Below the pieces are notes generated by a model, which saw only the letters and a program-made list of their open reading frames with translations, ran no database searches and had not been told where the DNA came from. 64,000 nucleotides of DNA from an uncultured Bacteroidales bacterium. Its GTDB lineage: Bacteria; Bacteroidota; Bacteroidia; Bacteroidales; VadinHA17. Numbering within the stretch: position 1 is the stretch's first letter; each line of letters opens with the position of its first letter. Positions 2,408 through 52,397 of the stretch are shown here, piece after piece. Both the position numbers and the translations under genes were made by a program. The stretch is from NCBI GenBank assembly GCA_963840965.1, contig CAWJAW010000003.1, forward strand, positions 269,714-333,713, written 5' to 3'.

Positions 2408-3371
2408 GGTTACCTGCGCCATAATAAGAAACGAGGATGATGAGATCCTTGTGGTACAGAGAGGCGAAAAGACCGACCATCCTTTCATGTGGGAATTCCC
2501 CGGAGGCAAGCTTAACAAAGACGAAAGTGAAGAAGATTGCATTATCCGCGAAATAAGTGAAGAACTTAACATGAACATTGTGATATGCGGCCGCCTGCCT
2601 GCAGTCGAACACGATTATGGTCACAAGCAGATCCGGCTAGTCCCCTTCGTGTGCGATACCCTCGACGATCTTCCGTTTCTCACGGAGCACGTGGCCTTTA
2701 AATGGCTTGCTCCCGGTGAAATTCTCAGTGTCGGTTTTTCAGAAGCTGACATTCCTGTTGCGGGAGAATATCTTAAATACATAAACTATGTAGAGAGCTC
2801 AACCTCCCAAATCCAAACGACTTCTGTTAATTCAATTAGAGAAGCTGATTTCGTCCTGACGCTTGAAAATACACATGGAAGGAAGGAAGCCGAATGGCTG
2901 GCTGAGTTGGCGGCTGAAAAAGAGGATGTACTCTCGAGACTGATAAATTTTTCTTTTTCGGCCGATAACAAGCTTTCATCAAAGGCATCATGGAGTCTTT
3001 CCAAGGTACACGACAAACATCCTGAAACCCTGACTCCGTTTATTCCGATGATAATCGGTTCGCTCGACCGGCTTGAAAATGAGAGTGTAAGAAGGTCATT
3101 CATGAAGATTATTTCGATCAGCGACATCACTGTAGTTACCCGGAAACATCAGGGCATCCTTGCCGACTACTGTTTCAGGATGCTCCGGTCGGGATTTTCC
3201 TCAATTGCGGTAAAAGCTTATTCGATGGAAATAATTTACCGGCTTGCACAGGTCTATCCCGAACTCACCGGTGAACTGGCCGCAACAATAAATCTGCTTC
3301 AGGATGAGAAATCGGCGGGGATACTTGCAAAAGGACGTATCATTCTGAAGAGGCTCAGGGGTTCCACATAA
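2400..3371 (+). CDS. Nudix hydrolase (MutT-like) fused to a C-terminal helical-repeat domain of unknown function
   Basis: Nudix box GGKLNKDESEEDCIIREISEELNM lies in the first ~130 aa. About 190 aa of alpha-helical repeat-like sequence follow. The ATG at 2400 overlaps the stop of the upstream gene (ATGATTGA). Confidence 0.7.
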   Translation: MIEVTCAIIRNEDDEILVVQRGEKTDHPFMWEFPGGKLNKDESEEDCIIREISEELNMNIVICGRLPAVEHDYGHKQIRLVPFVCDTLDDLPFLTEHVAFKWLAPGEILSVGFSEADIPVAGEYLKYINYVESSTSQIQTTSVNSIREADFVLTLENTHGRKEAEWLAELAAEKEDVLSRLINFSFSADNKLSSKASWSLSKVHDKHPETLTPFIPMIIGSLDRLENESVRRSFMKIISISDITVVTRKHQGILADYCFRMLRSGFSSIAVKAYSMEIIYRLAQVYPELTGELAATINLLQDEKSAGILAKGRIILKRLRGST

Positions 3372-39170: not shown

Positions 39171-39207
39171 AAACAAAAAAGGCATGCTGTGAACAGCATG
39201 CCTTTTT
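39171..39207 (-). terminator. intrinsic terminator / candidate Trp attenuator
   Basis: Minus strand reads AAAAAGGCATGCTG-ttca-CAGCATGCCTTTTTTGTTTG. The T-run ends 34 nt before the trpB2 ATG. Confidence 0.7.
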
Positions 39208-39247
39208 GTTTATATCCTATGGATTATATAACGGCCTTATTCACAGC

Positions 39248-39298
39248 TTAATTATTCGAGCTGCGCCAGGACCAAATATATAATGCACTAATTTTCAT
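39248..39298 (-). CDS. putative Trp leader peptide MKISALYIWSWRSSNN
   Basis: Hand-translated 16-codon ORF with two TGG codons (W9, W11) followed by RSS. It lies between aroA and the hairpin and is below the ORF-track size cut-off. Confidence 0.6.
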   Translation of the reverse strand: MKISALYIWSWRSSNN

Positions 39299-42830: not shown

Positions 42831-43994
42831 TTACAATTTCAACTTTTCTATTCTTTTCCTTGCTTCCAGCAGTCTTTTATTGTCAGCACACAAGGATATG
42901 CGTACATATCTTTCACCCCTGCTTCCAAAAATGAAACCGGGAGTGAGGAAGACATGCGCTTTCTGAAGTATATCCTCTACAAAAGATTCTGCGCCGGGCT
43001 TGGTTTCAGGTATACGGCCCCAGAGAAAGAGACCTGTCTGGTCAGAGCTGAATCTGCAATCCAGCTGCTCCATTATCGACTCGGCAGTCAGGCGCCTTTC
43101 CCTGTATGTAAGGTTGACCGTGTCGTACCATGATTCGGGATTGTGAAGGGCTTCTGCTGCTGCCAGCTGCATCGGGAGGAACATCCCCGAATCCATGTTG
43201 CTCTTTACCTTAAGAATCGTTTTTATGTATTCACTGTTACCGGCAACCATGCCAATTCTCCAGCCGGCCATATTGTGCGACTTGCTGAGGGAATTCAGTT
43301 CCAGCGCTGTTTCCATTGCTCCTTTTACTGAAAGAAGGCTGATGTATTCGTTGTTGAGTATAAAGCTGTACGGATTGTCGTTTATCAGAAGGATGTTACG
43401 CTCGAGGGCAAAAGAGACGAGTCTTTCGAAAAGACCTACTGATCCCTTTGCTCCGGTCGGCATATTCGGGTAGTTGGTCCACATGAGTTTTACCCTGCTC
43501 AGATCTTCTTTTTCAAGAGAGCCCATGTCGGGCTGCCAGCCCTTGCTTTCGTCGAGCGGATAGGTCCTGATCTTGCCACCCACCAAACTGGTAACCGAAG
43601 AATAGGTAGGGTATCCGGGATCGGGAATAAGCACCTCGTCGCCCGGGTTGACAAAAGCCATGCTTATGTGCATTATTCCTTCCTTGCTTCCCATGAGCGG
43701 GAGTATTTCCGAGACAGGATCAAGACTCACCCCGAAATATTTGTTGTACCATTCAGCGAAGGCTTTTCTCAGCACAGGACTTCCGCTGTAGCTCTGGTAT
43801 CCGTGCACATTTGATAAGCGTGCCTCTTCAGAGAGTCTTGCCACGGTATTTTCCGACGGTGGCTGGTCGGGACTTCCGATCCCCAGGTTGATAACATCAG
43901 CACCGGCAGTTCGCATCTCGTCGATCTGCCTCAGTTTCCTCGAAAAATAATACTCCTGGACGGTGTTGGTCCGTTCTGCCGGTTTAACTTTCAT
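42831..43994 (-). CDS. class I/II PLP-dependent aminotransferase (aromatic/prephenate aminotransferase candidate)
   Basis: SLSKSHNMAGWRIG lysine motif. The start was moved to MKVKPAERTN, overlapping the pheA stop by 11 nt. Confidence 0.75.
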   Translation of the reverse strand: MKVKPAERTNTVQEYYFSRKLRQIDEMRTAGADVINLGIGSPDQPPSENTVARLSEEARLSNVHGYQSYSGSPVLRKAFAEWYNKYFGVSLDPVSEILPLMGSKEGIMHISMAFVNPGDEVLIPDPGYPTYSSVTSLVGGKIRTYPLDESKGWQPDMGSLEKEDLSRVKLMWTNYPNMPTGAKGSVGLFERLVSFALERNILLINDNPYSFILNNEYISLLSVKGAMETALELNSLSKSHNMAGWRIGMVAGNSEYIKTILKVKSNMDSGMFLPMQLAAAEALHNPESWYDTVNLTYRERRLTAESIMEQLDCRFSSDQTGLFLWGRIPETKPGAESFVEDILQKAHVFLTPGFIFGSRGERYVRISLCADNKRLLEARKRIEKLKL

Positions 43995-44814
43995 ATAGCA
44001 TTTCTCCTTTGTTGTAAATTCCAAGTACTTCCAGATTGCTGGTATATTTCTCCAGGGTTGTAACTATAGCATCTGTTTCTGAATCAGCGGGCAGTTCGAG
44101 ATCGAGGTAGAACATATATTCCCAGTCACCGTTCAGTCGTGGTACCGACTGGATCTTTGACAGGTTGATGTTCATGTCCGCCAGTTTTACCAGGACCGAT
44201 GCAAGCGATCCGGGTTTGTGACCGGTTGCAAAGCAGATTGATACCTTGTTTCCCCTTGTGCTTCCCTTGTCTTCGCTGCCGATAACCAGGAACCTTGTGT
44301 AATTCTTCTTGAAAGTCTCGATTCCTTCGGCAATTATATCCAGTCCGTAAATTTCCGCTGCATTTCTGGATGCAATTGCCGCTATCTTTTTCAGCCGGTT
44401 TTCTGCAATTATCCTTGCGCTTGAAGCTGTGTCGTCTGTTTCAACCAGGGTTATTTCGGGGTATTGGTTCAGAAAGGTCATGCACTGGGCCAGGGCAATA
44501 GGGTGAGACCTGATCTGCCGGATATCCTTTATTGACTGTCCGGGGAGAGCCATCAGGTTCTGAATGATCCTCAGGTTGTGTTCGCCCAGGATCTTGAGTC
44601 CCGATTCTCTTATCAGGCTGTAGTTATAGAGGAGGCTTCCCGACCTGGCATTTTCGATTGCCATCATTGCAAGGTCTGCTCTTCTTTCCTTTACGGAATT
44701 AAGGGTCATGTCAAAAGAGGAGCACGGAACGATTTCAACTTCCTTACTGCTGAAATACTGCCTGGCGGCAACTTCATGGAAACATCCCGTTTCTCCCTGG
44801 ATAGCAATCTTCAT
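43984..44814 (-). CDS. pheA: prephenate dehydratase (PDT plus ACT domains)
   Basis: Starts MKIAIQGETGCFHE and has a C-terminal ACT domain (GSLASVL). The track ORF adds 47 codons from a TTG that reads through the upstream hairpin, so I trimmed it. Confidence 0.85.
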   Translation of the reverse strand: MKIAIQGETGCFHEVAARQYFSSKEVEIVPCSSFDMTLNSVKERRADLAMMAIENARSGSLLYNYSLIRESGLKILGEHNLRIIQNLMALPGQSIKDIRQIRSHPIALAQCMTFLNQYPEITLVETDDTASSARIIAENRLKKIAAIASRNAAEIYGLDIIAEGIETFKKNYTRFLVIGSEDKGSTRGNKVSICFATGHKPGSLASVLVKLADMNINLSKIQSVPRLNGDWEYMFYLDLELPADSETDAIVTTLEKYTSNLEVLGIYNKGEMLYES

Positions 44815-44835
44815 ATTAAATCTTTTTAAAACAGG

Positions 44836-44858
44836 AAGGGTCCCTTGTGGGGACCCTT
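44836..44858 (-). terminator. hairpin upstream of pheA (candidate attenuator terminator or initiation-region structure)
   Basis: Minus strand reads AAGGGTCCC-cacaa-GGGACCCTT then CCTGTTTTAAAAAG. The stem is 9 bp, the U-run is only 4 nt, and it ends 21 nt before the pheA ATG. Confidence 0.45.
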
Positions 44859-44896
44859 GCTTGCATATGTTGTTTTTTATGTATACAAAAATCCCC

Positions 44897-44962
44897 TTAT
44901 CTCTTTTTAAAATAAAAAAAGAAGTAAAAATAAGAGGTGATATAATTGTATACAATATTCAT
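44897..44962 (-). CDS. putative Phe/Tyr leader peptide MNIVYNYITSYFYFFFYFKKR
   Basis: Hand-translated 21-codon ORF with 5 Phe and 5 Tyr codons. Residues 11-18 are YFYFFFYF. The stop lies 38 nt before the hairpin. Confidence 0.6.
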   Translation of the reverse strand: MNIVYNYITSYFYFFFYFKKR

Positions 44963-44982
44963 TTTTTCGTTTTATTGGCTTA

Positions 44983-44990
44983 CAAAATTA
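44983..44990 (-). promoter_or_regulatory. TAATTTTG, a candidate -7 box for the aromatic operon leader
   Basis: Perfect TAnnTTTG, 20 nt upstream of the leader ATG. Confidence 0.4.
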
Positions 44991-45029
44991 ATACAGATTT
45001 TGAAATTGCAAGTAAAATATTAAGAAAAT

Positions 45030-45089
45030 GTTGAAAAAAGTAAAGAAGAAGACCCCTGCCTGCATGCTGGCGCAGCCAGTCAGGCAGGG
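45030..45089 (-). terminator. compound hairpin plus T-rich tail ending the his operon
   Basis: CCCTGCCTG...CAGGCAGGG with inner CTGGC/GCCAG. It is followed on the minus strand by GTCTTCTTCTTTACTTTTTT. Confidence 0.55.
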
Positions 45090-45254
45090 AAGGCCGAAGA
45101 CCGAAGACGGAAGAAGTTATGCCAGTTTTGCCAGTTCTGCGGGTTCTGCCGGTCGTTTATCATCACGGATGGTAGCTGAAAGCTCTGCGCCCTGTGCTCT
45201 GCGCCCTGTGCTCTGCGCCCTGAGCCCTGAGCCCTGAGCCTTGCGCCTTGCGCC
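45089..45254. repeat. composite short-tandem-repeat block in the his operon 3-prime region
   Basis: In order: (GAAGRCC-type heptamer)x4, (TGCCRGTTY nonamer)x4, (CTCTGCGCCCTGTG 14-mer)x2.5, (GCCCTGA)x3, (GCCTTGC)x2. The block runs up to the hisIE stop codon. Confidence 0.85.
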
Positions 45255-45851
45255 TTATTTCCCCTTATGCCGTTCTCTCAGTACTTCTTCAACATCTTCA
45301 AAAGCAACATTCTTCTTTTTCAGAAGAATAAGAAAATGGTATAACAGATCCGCCGCTTCATTTTTGAACAGGTCGATATTGTCATCCTTGGCTTCAATGA
45401 CCAGTTCCACTGCTTCTTCACCCACTTTCTGAGCTACTTTGTTTATTCCCTTTTTGAAGAGTTTGTTAGTGTAGGAACCTTCTGCATTGCCATCAATTCG
45501 TTTACTGATTATATCTTCAAGGTGGTAGACAAAGCCTTTTGAAACCTCCTCACCAAAGCACGAAAGACGTCCGGTGTGACAGACAGGTCCTGCCGGATCG
45601 ACCATGACAAGCAGGGCGTCATTGTCGCAGTCTGTTGTTATTTCTTTAACAGTAAGGAAGTTGCCAGATGTCTCCCCCTTGGTCCATAACCGGTTTTTAC
45701 TGCGGCTGAAGAAAGTGACCTTACCTTCCCTGACGGTCTGATCATAAGCCTCTTCATTCATGTAACCGACCATAAGTACCTGTAGCGAATTGTTGTCCTG
45801 GATTATTGCCGGAACAAGTCCGTCCCCTTTTTTGAAGTCAATGTTTATCAT
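45255..45851 (-). CDS. hisIE: bifunctional phosphoribosyl-AMP cyclohydrolase / phosphoribosyl-ATP diphosphatase
   Basis: HisI motifs (CDNDALL, GPVCHTG) followed by a HisE helical domain. Confidence 0.9.
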   Translation of the reverse strand: MINIDFKKGDGLVPAIIQDNNSLQVLMVGYMNEEAYDQTVREGKVTFFSRSKNRLWTKGETSGNFLTVKEITTDCDNDALLVMVDPAGPVCHTGRLSCFGEEVSKGFVYHLEDIISKRIDGNAEGSYTNKLFKKGINKVAQKVGEEAVELVIEAKDDNIDLFKNEAADLLYHFLILLKKKNVAFEDVEEVLRERHKGK

Positions 45852-51357: not shown

Positions 51358-52214
51358 TACAAAATCATTTTTTCGATTGGTATTACAAGTATTCCCTGTG
51401 CACCCGCAATCCTTAACTGATCAATCCTTTCCCAGAATTCATCCTCCTTGACTACGGAGTGGATGCTGCACCAGCCCTTTTCCTCGAGGGGAAGGATGGT
51501 GGGGCTTTTCATGCCCGGAAGTATCTTGCAGATCTCATGCAATGATTCCAGCGGTGCATTCAGAAGAATGTACTTGTTTTCCCTGGCGTTTCTTACTGAC
51601 CTGATCCTGAACAACAGTTTCTCGAGGATATTCTTTTTATCCTGATCAAGGTTTCTGTTTGCTATTATAACTGCCTGACTTTTCAGAAGGACTTCCACCT
51701 CCTTAAGTCCGTTAGTCATAAGGGTGCTTCCGGAGCTTACAATGTCGCAGACGGCTTCGGCCAAACCTATCCCCGGTGCAATTTCAACGCTTCCGCTGAT
51801 CTCTTCAGTAGTTGCCGTCAGATTATTCTCCGCCAGGTAAAGGTTAAGAAGCCTGGGATAGCTGGTTGCCACCTTTTTATTCATGAACCATCCCGGACCT
51901 GTGTACGATTCCTCTTTCGGGATTGCAAGGCTCAATCGGCATTGCGCAAATCCCAGCTGCTCAAGAATTTCCACGTCCCTGTTTTTTTCAAACACTATGT
52001 TTTCGCCGAGGATGCCTATGTCGGCAACCTGTTGTTCGACATACTGGGGGATGTCGTCATCCCGGAGAAACAGAATATCGACAGGGAAGTTTGAAGCACT
52101 TGTCTTGAGGACATCGGTGCCGTTTGAGAATTTGATTCCGCATTCCTGCAGCAGTTTGTGAGAGTTTTCACTAAGCCTTCCCTTTTTCTGGATGGCAATT
52201 TTCAGCCTGTTCAT
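51357..52214 (-). CDS. hisG: ATP phosphoribosyltransferase, long form
   Basis: 285 aa with LKIAIQKKGRL and DIVSSGSTL motifs and a C-terminal regulatory domain. Confidence 0.9.
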   Translation of the reverse strand: MNRLKIAIQKKGRLSENSHKLLQECGIKFSNGTDVLKTSASNFPVDILFLRDDDIPQYVEQQVADIGILGENIVFEKNRDVEILEQLGFAQCRLSLAIPKEESYTGPGWFMNKKVATSYPRLLNLYLAENNLTATTEEISGSVEIAPGIGLAEAVCDIVSSGSTLMTNGLKEVEVLLKSQAVIIANRNLDQDKKNILEKLLFRIRSVRNARENKYILLNAPLESLHEICKILPGMKSPTILPLEEKGWCSIHSVVKEDEFWERIDQLRIAGAQGILVIPIEKMIL

Positions 52215-52247
52215 TTCATTATGGTTTTTTGTCGGGGCATATCGCCG

Positions 52248-52285
52248 GAAAAATAAAAACCCGTCTGATATGCTCAGACGGGTTA
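52248..52285 (-). terminator. intrinsic terminator / candidate His attenuator
   Basis: Minus strand reads AACCCGTCTGA-gcata-TCAGACGGGTTTTTATTTTT. It ends 35 nt before the hisG ATG. Confidence 0.7.
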
Positions 52286-52313
52286 TGATATTTTGATACT
52301 ATTACATATCACT

Positions 52314-52370
52314 TTCATTTCGCCTGAGTGCAGGAGAAAAAATGGTGATGATGTAATTTAATTGATGTCA
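52314..52370 (-). CDS. putative His leader peptide MTSIKLHHHHFFSCTQAK
   Basis: Hand-translated 18-codon ORF with four consecutive His codons (CAT CAT CAC CAT). Its stop lies 28 nt before the terminator stem. Confidence 0.65.
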
Positions 52371-52389
52371 TTTGTTTATAATCTGAAGG

Positions 52390-52397
52390 CAAATATA
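52390..52397 (-). promoter_or_regulatory. TATATTTG, a candidate -7 box for the his operon leader
   Basis: Perfect TAnnTTTG, 19 nt upstream of the leader ATG. Confidence 0.4.

Follow-up and report, generated by a model that had tools for sequence, protein, structure and literature searches.

A 64-kb stretch of the genome of an uncultured Bacteroidales bacterium (assembly GCA_963840965.1, contig CAWJAW010000003.1, positions 269,714 to 333,713; hereafter the window, in which coordinates are counted from the first nucleotide) contains an operon for the biosynthesis of aromatic amino acids and, upstream of its first gene, the leader element that is the subject of this study. Both are located on the minus strand (table 1). 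Based on Pfam and NCBIfam assignments, the operon consists of pheA, an aminotransferase gene, tyrA, a gene for 3-deoxy-D-arabino-heptulosonate 7-phosphate (DAHP) synthase fused to chorismate mutase, and aroA, and it encodes, as the original prediction for this region had stated, both prephenate dehydratase and prephenate dehydrogenase. The pheA gene is the first gene downstream of the leader and the predicted target, and its product is a prephenate dehydratase with an ACT domain (Pfam PDT and ACT; NCBIfam prephenate dehydratase). The leader open reading frame (ORF; MNIVYNYITSYFYFFFYFKKR) is located 79 nt before pheA, with a Bacteroidota-type promoter on one side and a GC hairpin with a U-run on the other. 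It contains five Phe and five Tyr codons, and codons 11–18 form the contiguous run YFYFFFYF, which matches the 21-codon mini-ORF with eight contiguous Phe and Tyr codons that had been predicted.

The frequency of such leaders was determined with a criterion of an ATG-initiated ORF of 10–35 amino acids that has at least seven F or Y residues within an eight-residue window and at least two of each. The pheA leader was the only ORF selected by this criterion on either strand of the window. In approximately 1 Mb of related loci, both strands included, 79 matches were found that comprised 78 pheA leaders and a single unrelated ORF. The leader is not a chance feature.

A PheA protein scan with one genome per species identified 80 loci, all within metagenome-assembled genomes of uncultured Bacteroidales and with PheA proteins 70–96% identical to that of the window (the closest relative by PheA is Bacteroidales bacterium UBA6117). 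A mini-ORF was present upstream of pheA with its reading frame kept in all 79 loci that have upstream DNA (the window counted), and conservation of the ORF in related Bacteroidota, which had been proposed as a check, was thereby found. The leader ATG is invariant in the 79 aligned loci, the leader is 19–21 amino acids long in 78 of them, and alignment gaps within the reading frame measure 3 or 6 nt. Overall, the loci contain 69 distinct leader peptides and 76 distinct ORF sequences. In one relative (L078, 2851–2945) the leader stop is lost by a UAA to AAA change, which adds nine codons across the sequence downstream of the stop and results in a 30-amino-acid peptide, and the remaining element is intact. 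The distance from leader to pheA is 79–90 nt in 76 of the 79 loci. Two relatives (L002, ~2867–3000, and L042, ~2899–3000) carry an insertion of ~90–125 nt between the attenuator and the pheA start; the insertion in L002 is flanked by inverted repeats (AAACCCACGTG ... CATGTGGGTT) in the manner of a miniature transposable element, with leader and terminator intact.

An independent search of metagenome contigs used a non-coding 19-mer of the element (TAAGGGGATTTTTGTATAC), not pheA, as the query. It returned 81 matches, of which 74 were accompanied by a pheA start, five lacked downstream DNA, and two were not located by pheA. Within those 74 contigs the pheA start follows 64–80 nt after the 19-mer, and the mini-ORF leader was found in every contig that could be tested (74/74), with 51 distinct leader peptides among the matches. 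Genes other than pheA were rejected as targets, as the two non-pheA matches (L102 and L104) are chance occurrences inside a coding gene. The window contains a single copy of a 16-mer of the element. Thus, pheA is the only gene to which the element is linked. One metagenome contig (L145, 3140–3158 and 8949–8967) contains the leader and the pheA start twice, inverted and with identical sequence, which is probably a palindromic assembly artefact.

Codon statistics were taken over codons 11–18 of the 62 leaders that are 21 amino acids long (496 codons). The codons follow a T-W-Y pattern, with T at the first position in 491, T or A at the second position in 481, and T or C at the third position in 495 of the 496 codons. 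Departures from the consensus consisted of 39 synonymous changes, 76 exchanges between F and Y, and 17 other changes. An exchange between F and Y is a U to A or A to U change at the second codon position that does not preserve RNA pairing; the constraint is therefore on the codons and not on a helix. Nearly all leaders have Tyr at positions 13 and 17 and Phe at positions 14 and 16, whereas positions 11, 12, and 15 alternate between the two residues. Overall, F accounts for 27% and Y for 22.5% of the leader residues in the family, each leader contains 4–8 Phe and 2–7 Tyr, and 78 of 79 leaders carry F or Y at 7–9 of the nine core residues. The leader is predicted to be translated.

The start context is conserved as well. 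Of the 79 aligned loci, 78 contain a TAnnTTTG box, and in 65, including the window, exactly 20 nt separate the end of this box from the leader ATG; box and spacing in the window are as originally predicted. All 78 loci that carry this −7 box contain TTTG, CTTG, or ATTG at the place equivalent to the TTG-type element of the window, which may have a promoter role as a −33-like element. The 5′ untranslated region (UTR) of the leader is short and A-rich and lacks a Shine–Dalgarno sequence across the aligned loci. These features agree with the promoter consensus of Bacteroides and with the A-rich context of translation initiation known for the phylum from published work.

Three mutually exclusive helices (1:2, 2:3, and 3:4) were identified in the leader RNA, for which alternative folding had been proposed as a check. 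Segment 1 contains the regulatory codons, and segment 2 is non-coding and nearly invariant across the 79 loci. Segments 2 and 3 form an antiterminator helix of 12 bp with three G-U pairs, with a free energy of −16.4 kcal/mol in the window (z = −3.84, 0 of 200 shuffles as stable). The GGGGA:UCCCC pairing of the original prediction is part of this region of pairing and is real, but its description as short and weak did not hold, as the helix is about as stable as the terminator. The 3:4 terminator stem (AAGGGUCCC/GGGACCCUU, 44858–44836) contains 9 bp, six of them GC, and has a free energy of −16.2 kcal/mol in the window (z = −3.08, one of 200 shuffles as stable). The stem starts 38 nt after the leader stop, in agreement with the original prediction, and its end (44836) is separated by 18 nt, not by the 21 nt given there, from the pheA ATG. 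Within the 9 nt that follow the stem, 5–8 U are found in 69 of 79 relatives.

The 1:2 hairpin would act as an anti-antiterminator. Its outer helix pairs UUGUAUACAA (44955–44946, codons 3–6) with UUGUAUACA (44888–44880), just beyond segment 2, and its inner helices pair the F and Y codons with AAAAAGAGAUAAGGGG. The hairpin has a free energy of −20.3 kcal/mol in the window (z = −5.28, 0 of 200 shuffles as stable). Among the relatives, z averages −3.66 for this region and lies below −2 in 75 of 77 sequences, and the outer helix is part of the minimum free energy (MFE) structure in 72 of 77. The AU-rich 1:2 and 2:3 helices were established by explicit pair counts and per-sequence folding. By these counts, 79–92% of cells are paired across relatives in the 1:2 hairpin, where the outer helix reaches 92% and displays compensatory changes at four pairs, and 94.9% of cells are paired in the antiterminator helix across 78 distinct sequences. 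The closing pair of the antiterminator covaries (GC 28, AU 14, GU 9), and none of 500 shuffles reached the observed number of double changes. Two copies of TTGTATACAA were considered as palindromic protein-binding operators and rejected; the copies in L071 and L079 are reverse complements of one another and neither is a palindrome.

Table 1. Features of the pheA leader element and the downstream operon in the window.
Feature	Position	Strand	Details
−33-like element CTTG (TTG-type)	45009..45012	−	18 nt upstream of the −7 box
−7 box TAATTTTG (TAnnTTTG)	44983..44990	−	20 nt before the leader ATG
Leader ORF MNIVYNYITSYFYFFFYFKKR with TAA stop	44897..44962	−	ATG 44962–44960, 21 sense codons, TAA 44899–44897
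1:2 hairpin (anti-antiterminator)	44880..44955	−	Outer helix and inner helices
Regulatory codons 11–18 (YFYFFFYF), segment 1	44909..44932	−	From codon statistics of 62 leaders
Segment 2 GGGGAUUUUUGU	44885..44896	−	Starts at the first base after the stop; antiterminator 5′ strand
Segment 3 GCAAGGGUCCCC	44849..44860	−	Antiterminator 3′ strand; includes the entire terminator 5′ arm
Intrinsic terminator (predicted)	44828..44858	−	Stem 44858–44850/44844–44836, loop CACAA, then CCUGUUUU
pheA, prephenate dehydratase	43984..44817	−	ATG at 44817
Class I/II aminotransferase	after pheA, to 42831	−	Pfam/NCBIfam
tyrA, prephenate dehydrogenase	42726–41881	−	Pfam/NCBIfam
DAHP synthase fused to chorismate mutase	41869–40754	−	Pfam/NCBIfam
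aroA, 5-enolpyruvylshikimate 3-phosphate (EPSP) synthase	40739–39489	−	Pfam/NCBIfam

The effect of a ribosome on the leader RNA was modeled by blocking the A-site codon plus 12 nt and refolding the RNA. The terminator formed in 79 of 79 sequences when no ribosome was present or when the ribosome was placed at the stop codon. In the window, a ribosome placed on the KKR codons likewise left the terminator in place. The antiterminator became the MFE structure of the window when codon 11, 12, or 18 occupied the A site; at codons 13–17 an alternative that keeps the terminator lies within ~1 kcal/mol. The conserved spacer of three basic codons (KKR) positions the GGGG of segment 2 so that a ribosome at the stop just covers it and one stalled at the last F codon just leaves it exposed. 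The mean energies of the antiterminator (−16.2 kcal/mol) and the terminator (−16.9 kcal/mol) in the family are nearly isoenergetic.

Taken together, five features by which attenuators are recognized were found at this locus: a short ORF between promoter and first gene, enrichment of the cognate codons, a terminator, an antiterminator together with the 1:2 hairpin, and a geometry that links ribosome position to RNA folding. The comparative and structural evidence supports the ribosome-mediated attenuator with a mixed Phe and Tyr leader that had originally been proposed, and we put the probability that the element is a ribosome-mediated (leader-peptide) transcription attenuator of the pheA-aminotransferase-tyrA-DAHP synthase/chorismate mutase-aroA operon at roughly 80%. 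It is an uncatalogued member of the textbook class of leader-peptide attenuators and not a new principle. Under this interpretation, transcription would begin a few bases after the TAnnTTTG box and the 21-codon leader would be translated while it emerges. With plentiful charged Phe-tRNA and Tyr-tRNA, the ribosome would pass codons 11–18 and reach Lys-Lys-Arg-stop, where its footprint would cover GGGGAUUUUUGU; segment 3 would then pair with segment 4, and the predicted hairpin and U-run would terminate transcription before pheA. If either charged tRNA is scarce, the ribosome would stall within YFYFFFYF, which would keep segment 1 off segment 2 and leave the GGGG outside the footprint. Segment 2 could then pair with GCAAGGGUCCCC once this is transcribed, the terminator would not form, and the operon would be read through. 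Without translation, the 1:2 hairpin would sequester segment 2, and termination would be the default. Joint sensing of Phe and Tyr is suggested by the codon content, and sensing of Tyr is the least secure step.

Several points weigh against the attenuator interpretation. The support is wholly computational. RNAalifold on the 79-sequence alignment recovers the terminator stem only. Most paired columns are invariant and the covariation support is accordingly thin; invariance is expected where bases serve two pairings, and it limits what covariation can contribute. The U-run of the window (CCUGUUUU) is interrupted, with 5 U of 9, and is among the poorer U-runs of the family. Furthermore, when the complete transcript was folded to equilibrium under a stalled ribosome, 58 of 79 sequences still favored the terminator. 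This requires a kinetic switch, in which segment 2 would capture segment 3 ahead of the synthesis of segment 4; a thermodynamic switch is not claimed, as folding under the stalled mask fails to favor the antiterminator in most relatives. A kinetic decision is accepted for the Escherichia coli trp attenuator, where the terminator is likewise more stable than the antiterminator. To our knowledge, coupling of transcription and translation has not been demonstrated in Bacteroidota. Finally, the aroR leader upstream of aroF in Corynebacterium glutamicum (Neshat et al. 2014, as summarized in PMC11802643), which contains an F-Y-F motif, is described in that summary as responsive to limitation of Phe but not of Tyr, and Tyr codons thus need not mean Tyr sensing.

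This precedent speaks for an identical attenuator that senses Phe-tRNA only, in which the Tyr codons would be tolerated spacers that break up long, slippage-prone U-runs. Some relatives are almost pure Phe in the core (e.g., SFFFFFFYC), and UUC codons alone are not used for breaking the U-runs. However, the interspersed residue is specifically Tyr in three orders, whereas it is Ala and Thr in E. coli PheL, and the near-invariance of Tyr13 and Tyr17 together with positions 11, 12, and 15 that switch solely between F and Y argues against a spacer. Changes from F to Y disrupt the 1:2 pairing instead of preserving it, and the operon includes tyrA and the shared DAHP synthase/chorismate mutase. A leader that senses Phe only is considered unlikely on these grounds.

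Control without intrinsic termination, either translational, with a hairpin that hinders pheA initiation, or Rho-dependent, with an untranslated leader that recruits Rho, would be compatible with the imperfect U-run of the window and with a hairpin that ends just 18 nt before the pheA ATG. Translational occlusion had been offered as an alternative in the original prediction; the presence of a U-run behind the stem in nearly all relatives (the 69 of 79 given above) and the 18 nt between stem end and ATG make it less likely. The spacer between hairpin and ATG varies in sequence and length, and the element is kept in the two relatives with an insertion of ~90–125 nt at this place. Moreover, the antiterminator is aimed at the 5′ arm of the terminator and not at the start region, which leaves this mode of control with a very low probability. 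A structured RNA, such as a riboswitch or a protein-binding leader, with an incidental ORF, or a small hydrophobic protein with an independent function, is more improbable still. Non-coding parts such as GGGGAUUUUUGUAUAC are more conserved than the peptide and the N-terminal codons are constrained by the RNA helix, as would be expected if only the RNA mattered. Against this stand the invariant ATG, the fixed stop position, the indels in multiples of three, and the T-W-Y periodicity with free T/C changes at the third position. In addition, the peptides found in Saprospiraceae and Chitinophagales (see below) are wholly different in sequence but retain the F/Y composition, and no Rfam family matches at gathering score. 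The ribosome-mediated attenuator remains the preferred explanation for the element.

The comparison was extended to a distant sample of contigs that encode PheA proteins ~40–50% identical to that of the window; Bacteroides, Prevotella, and other cultured Bacteroidales lay outside this sample. Leaders were found before pheA in Saprospiraceae (L081–L083: MNLSLSNNYFYFSFFFYGQP, MFDFYFYGYFYGSP, MNKPLNKQYFYFGFYFYAQS, MIPNRQRFYFYGFYFYAQHKGAH, and MRSNNSFYFFSFYFYGQS), in Chitinophaga (L085: MIKQTTFGFFSFYYFWYQE and MLQPVSNNYFFYYFSYFFYAKKQGTRLQ), in a Chitinophagales metagenome-assembled genome (L090: MSKIYFYGYYFFC), and in a locus of unassigned lineage (L089, an F-rich leader with Tyr). Where the distant leaders end at a canonical stop, GGG(G)A(C) occurs within a few bases after it, and in the leaders that read on (the second copies of L082 and L085) it lies inside the last codons of the ORF. 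Each distant leader is followed by a GC hairpin and a U-run. A profile built from the family of the window recovers the distant elements where they are expected, in alignments that span most of the profile length, with E-values of 5.7e-11 for Chitinophaga and 5e-4, 4e-3, and ~0.01 for Saprospiraceae, scores that include some composition bias. The elements of Bacteroidales, Saprospiraceae, and Chitinophagales probably represent one family. No leader was identified upstream of pheA in two Flavobacteriales-like loci, one Draconibacterium-like locus, and one unassigned locus of the distant sample, and the element is therefore not universal in the phylum.

Two complete F/Y leader–terminator units are located in tandem before pheA in three of the distant loci (L081, 2675–2960; L082, 2600–2945; L085, 2155–2450). 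We know of no description of tandem leader-peptide attenuators. It is an even bet that the elements constitute an undescribed RNA-plus-peptide family in several Bacteroidota orders that acts as a two-input sensor. In such a sensor, a shortage of either Phe or Tyr would open the shared pheA-tyrA-DAHP synthase operon, the balance between the two would be set by the placement of individual Tyr and Phe codons, and in some lineages the tandem units in series would multiply the decision and make the response sharper.

Literature searches returned no description of a Phe/Tyr leader element; a prior mention may exist in the work of Vitreschak et al. from 2004, which reportedly predicted some attenuators in Bacteroidetes/Chlorobi. 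Neither the window nor six related loci contained a match to an Rfam 15 family at gathering score. The best relevant match at the element was RF01859 (Phe_leader), which reached 24.9 bits against a gathering score of 55 (E = 0.03–0.31), a sub-threshold match to which the U-rich codons and the terminator give rise. Neither RF01692 (Bacteroid-trp) nor RF01743 (Leu/phe leader) occurred among the matches with E up to 10 for 44780–45020. The E. coli pheL-pheA attenuator (RF01859) has the same logic and target gene, with a leader ORF of Phe codons before pheA, an intrinsic terminator, and alternative pairings. However, no RNA homology is detectable, PheL contains seven Phe and no Tyr whereas about half of the leader described here is Tyr, the operon in the window additionally contains tyrA, DAHP synthase/chorismate mutase, and aroA, and the leader has a promoter of the Bacteroidota type and a 5′ UTR that is rich in A and lacks a Shine–Dalgarno sequence.

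Integration of several end products by the mixed codons of one leader is well established for the enterobacterial thr (Thr and Ile) and ilvGMEDA (Leu, Val, and Ile) leaders. These respond to other amino acids and belong to other RNA families, whereas the element described here would combine two amino acids from two branches within one operon. The Bacteroid-trp leader (RF01692; Weinberg et al. 2010, PMC2864571) is a leader-peptide attenuator motif specific to Bacteroidota, so that the mechanism class is already recognized in this phylum, but it uses Trp codons, precedes trp genes, and does not match the pheA element. The aroR leader is similar in that a mixed Phe/Tyr-codon leader mediates attenuation of aromatic amino acid biosynthesis; as far as it is summarized in PMC11802643, it contains an F-Y-F motif only, compared with an eight-codon F/Y run at a ratio of ~1:1, and it belongs to a different phylum and precedes a different first gene.

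The surroundings of the element contain further features. Upstream of the pheA start, the reading frame of the gene continues without a stop across the terminator and most of the leader, which gives a 323-amino-acid ORF from TTG 44955 (43984–44955, minus strand). In two database entries (P0001 and P0069) pheA is called with 20–25 additional N-terminal residues (297 and 302 amino acids). Because of this open frame, automated gene calling sometimes places the start of pheA too far upstream, and such extended calls should be read with the warning that they may conceal a leader. The upstream neighbor on the minus strand is the his operon, with hisIE as its last gene (stop at 45255; Pfam). Directly 3′ of the hisIE stop, at 45181–45256, lie ~5 copies of a 14-nt unit with a 7-nt sub-period (GGCGCAG/GGCUCAG-like on the minus strand). 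More short repeats at 45089–45153 are followed by a GC hairpin, which is probably the his operon terminator.

Two further candidate leaders were identified in the window. The first precedes hisG and consists of a mini-ORF (MTSIKLHHHHFFSCTQAK, 52371–52315, minus strand) with four consecutive His codons, within a region (52245–52397, minus strand) that contains a TATATTTG box (52397–52390) and a hairpin (52284–52258) with a U-run before the hisG ATG at 52214; Rfam His_leader did not match at this candidate. The second precedes a TrpB-like gene (NF009057, 37775–39136) and consists of a mini-ORF (MKISALYIWSWRSSNN, 39298–39248; region 39171–39298, minus strand) and a hairpin (GGCAUGCUG/CAGCAUGCC, 39202–39181) that is followed by the U-run UUUUUUGUUU. 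Only 5 nt separate the ATG of this candidate Trp leader from the end of the closest TAnnTTTG box, which makes the box a doubtful promoter, and RF01692 (Bacteroid-trp) reaches a sub-threshold 29.9 bits there against a gathering score of 49.

With candidate leaders before the his operon and the trpB-like gene in the same window, leader-peptide attenuation looks like a general habit of the organism, and this uncultured Bacteroidales genome probably uses classical attenuation for at least three pathways (his, phe/tyr, and the trpB-like gene). Attenuation needs translation that is tightly coupled to transcription, and the phylum largely initiates translation without Shine–Dalgarno sequences. The element adds an uncatalogued, well-supported cis-regulatory family to a phylum with poorly mapped regulation, and it offers an easily mutated test case for one leader that may read two tRNA pools.

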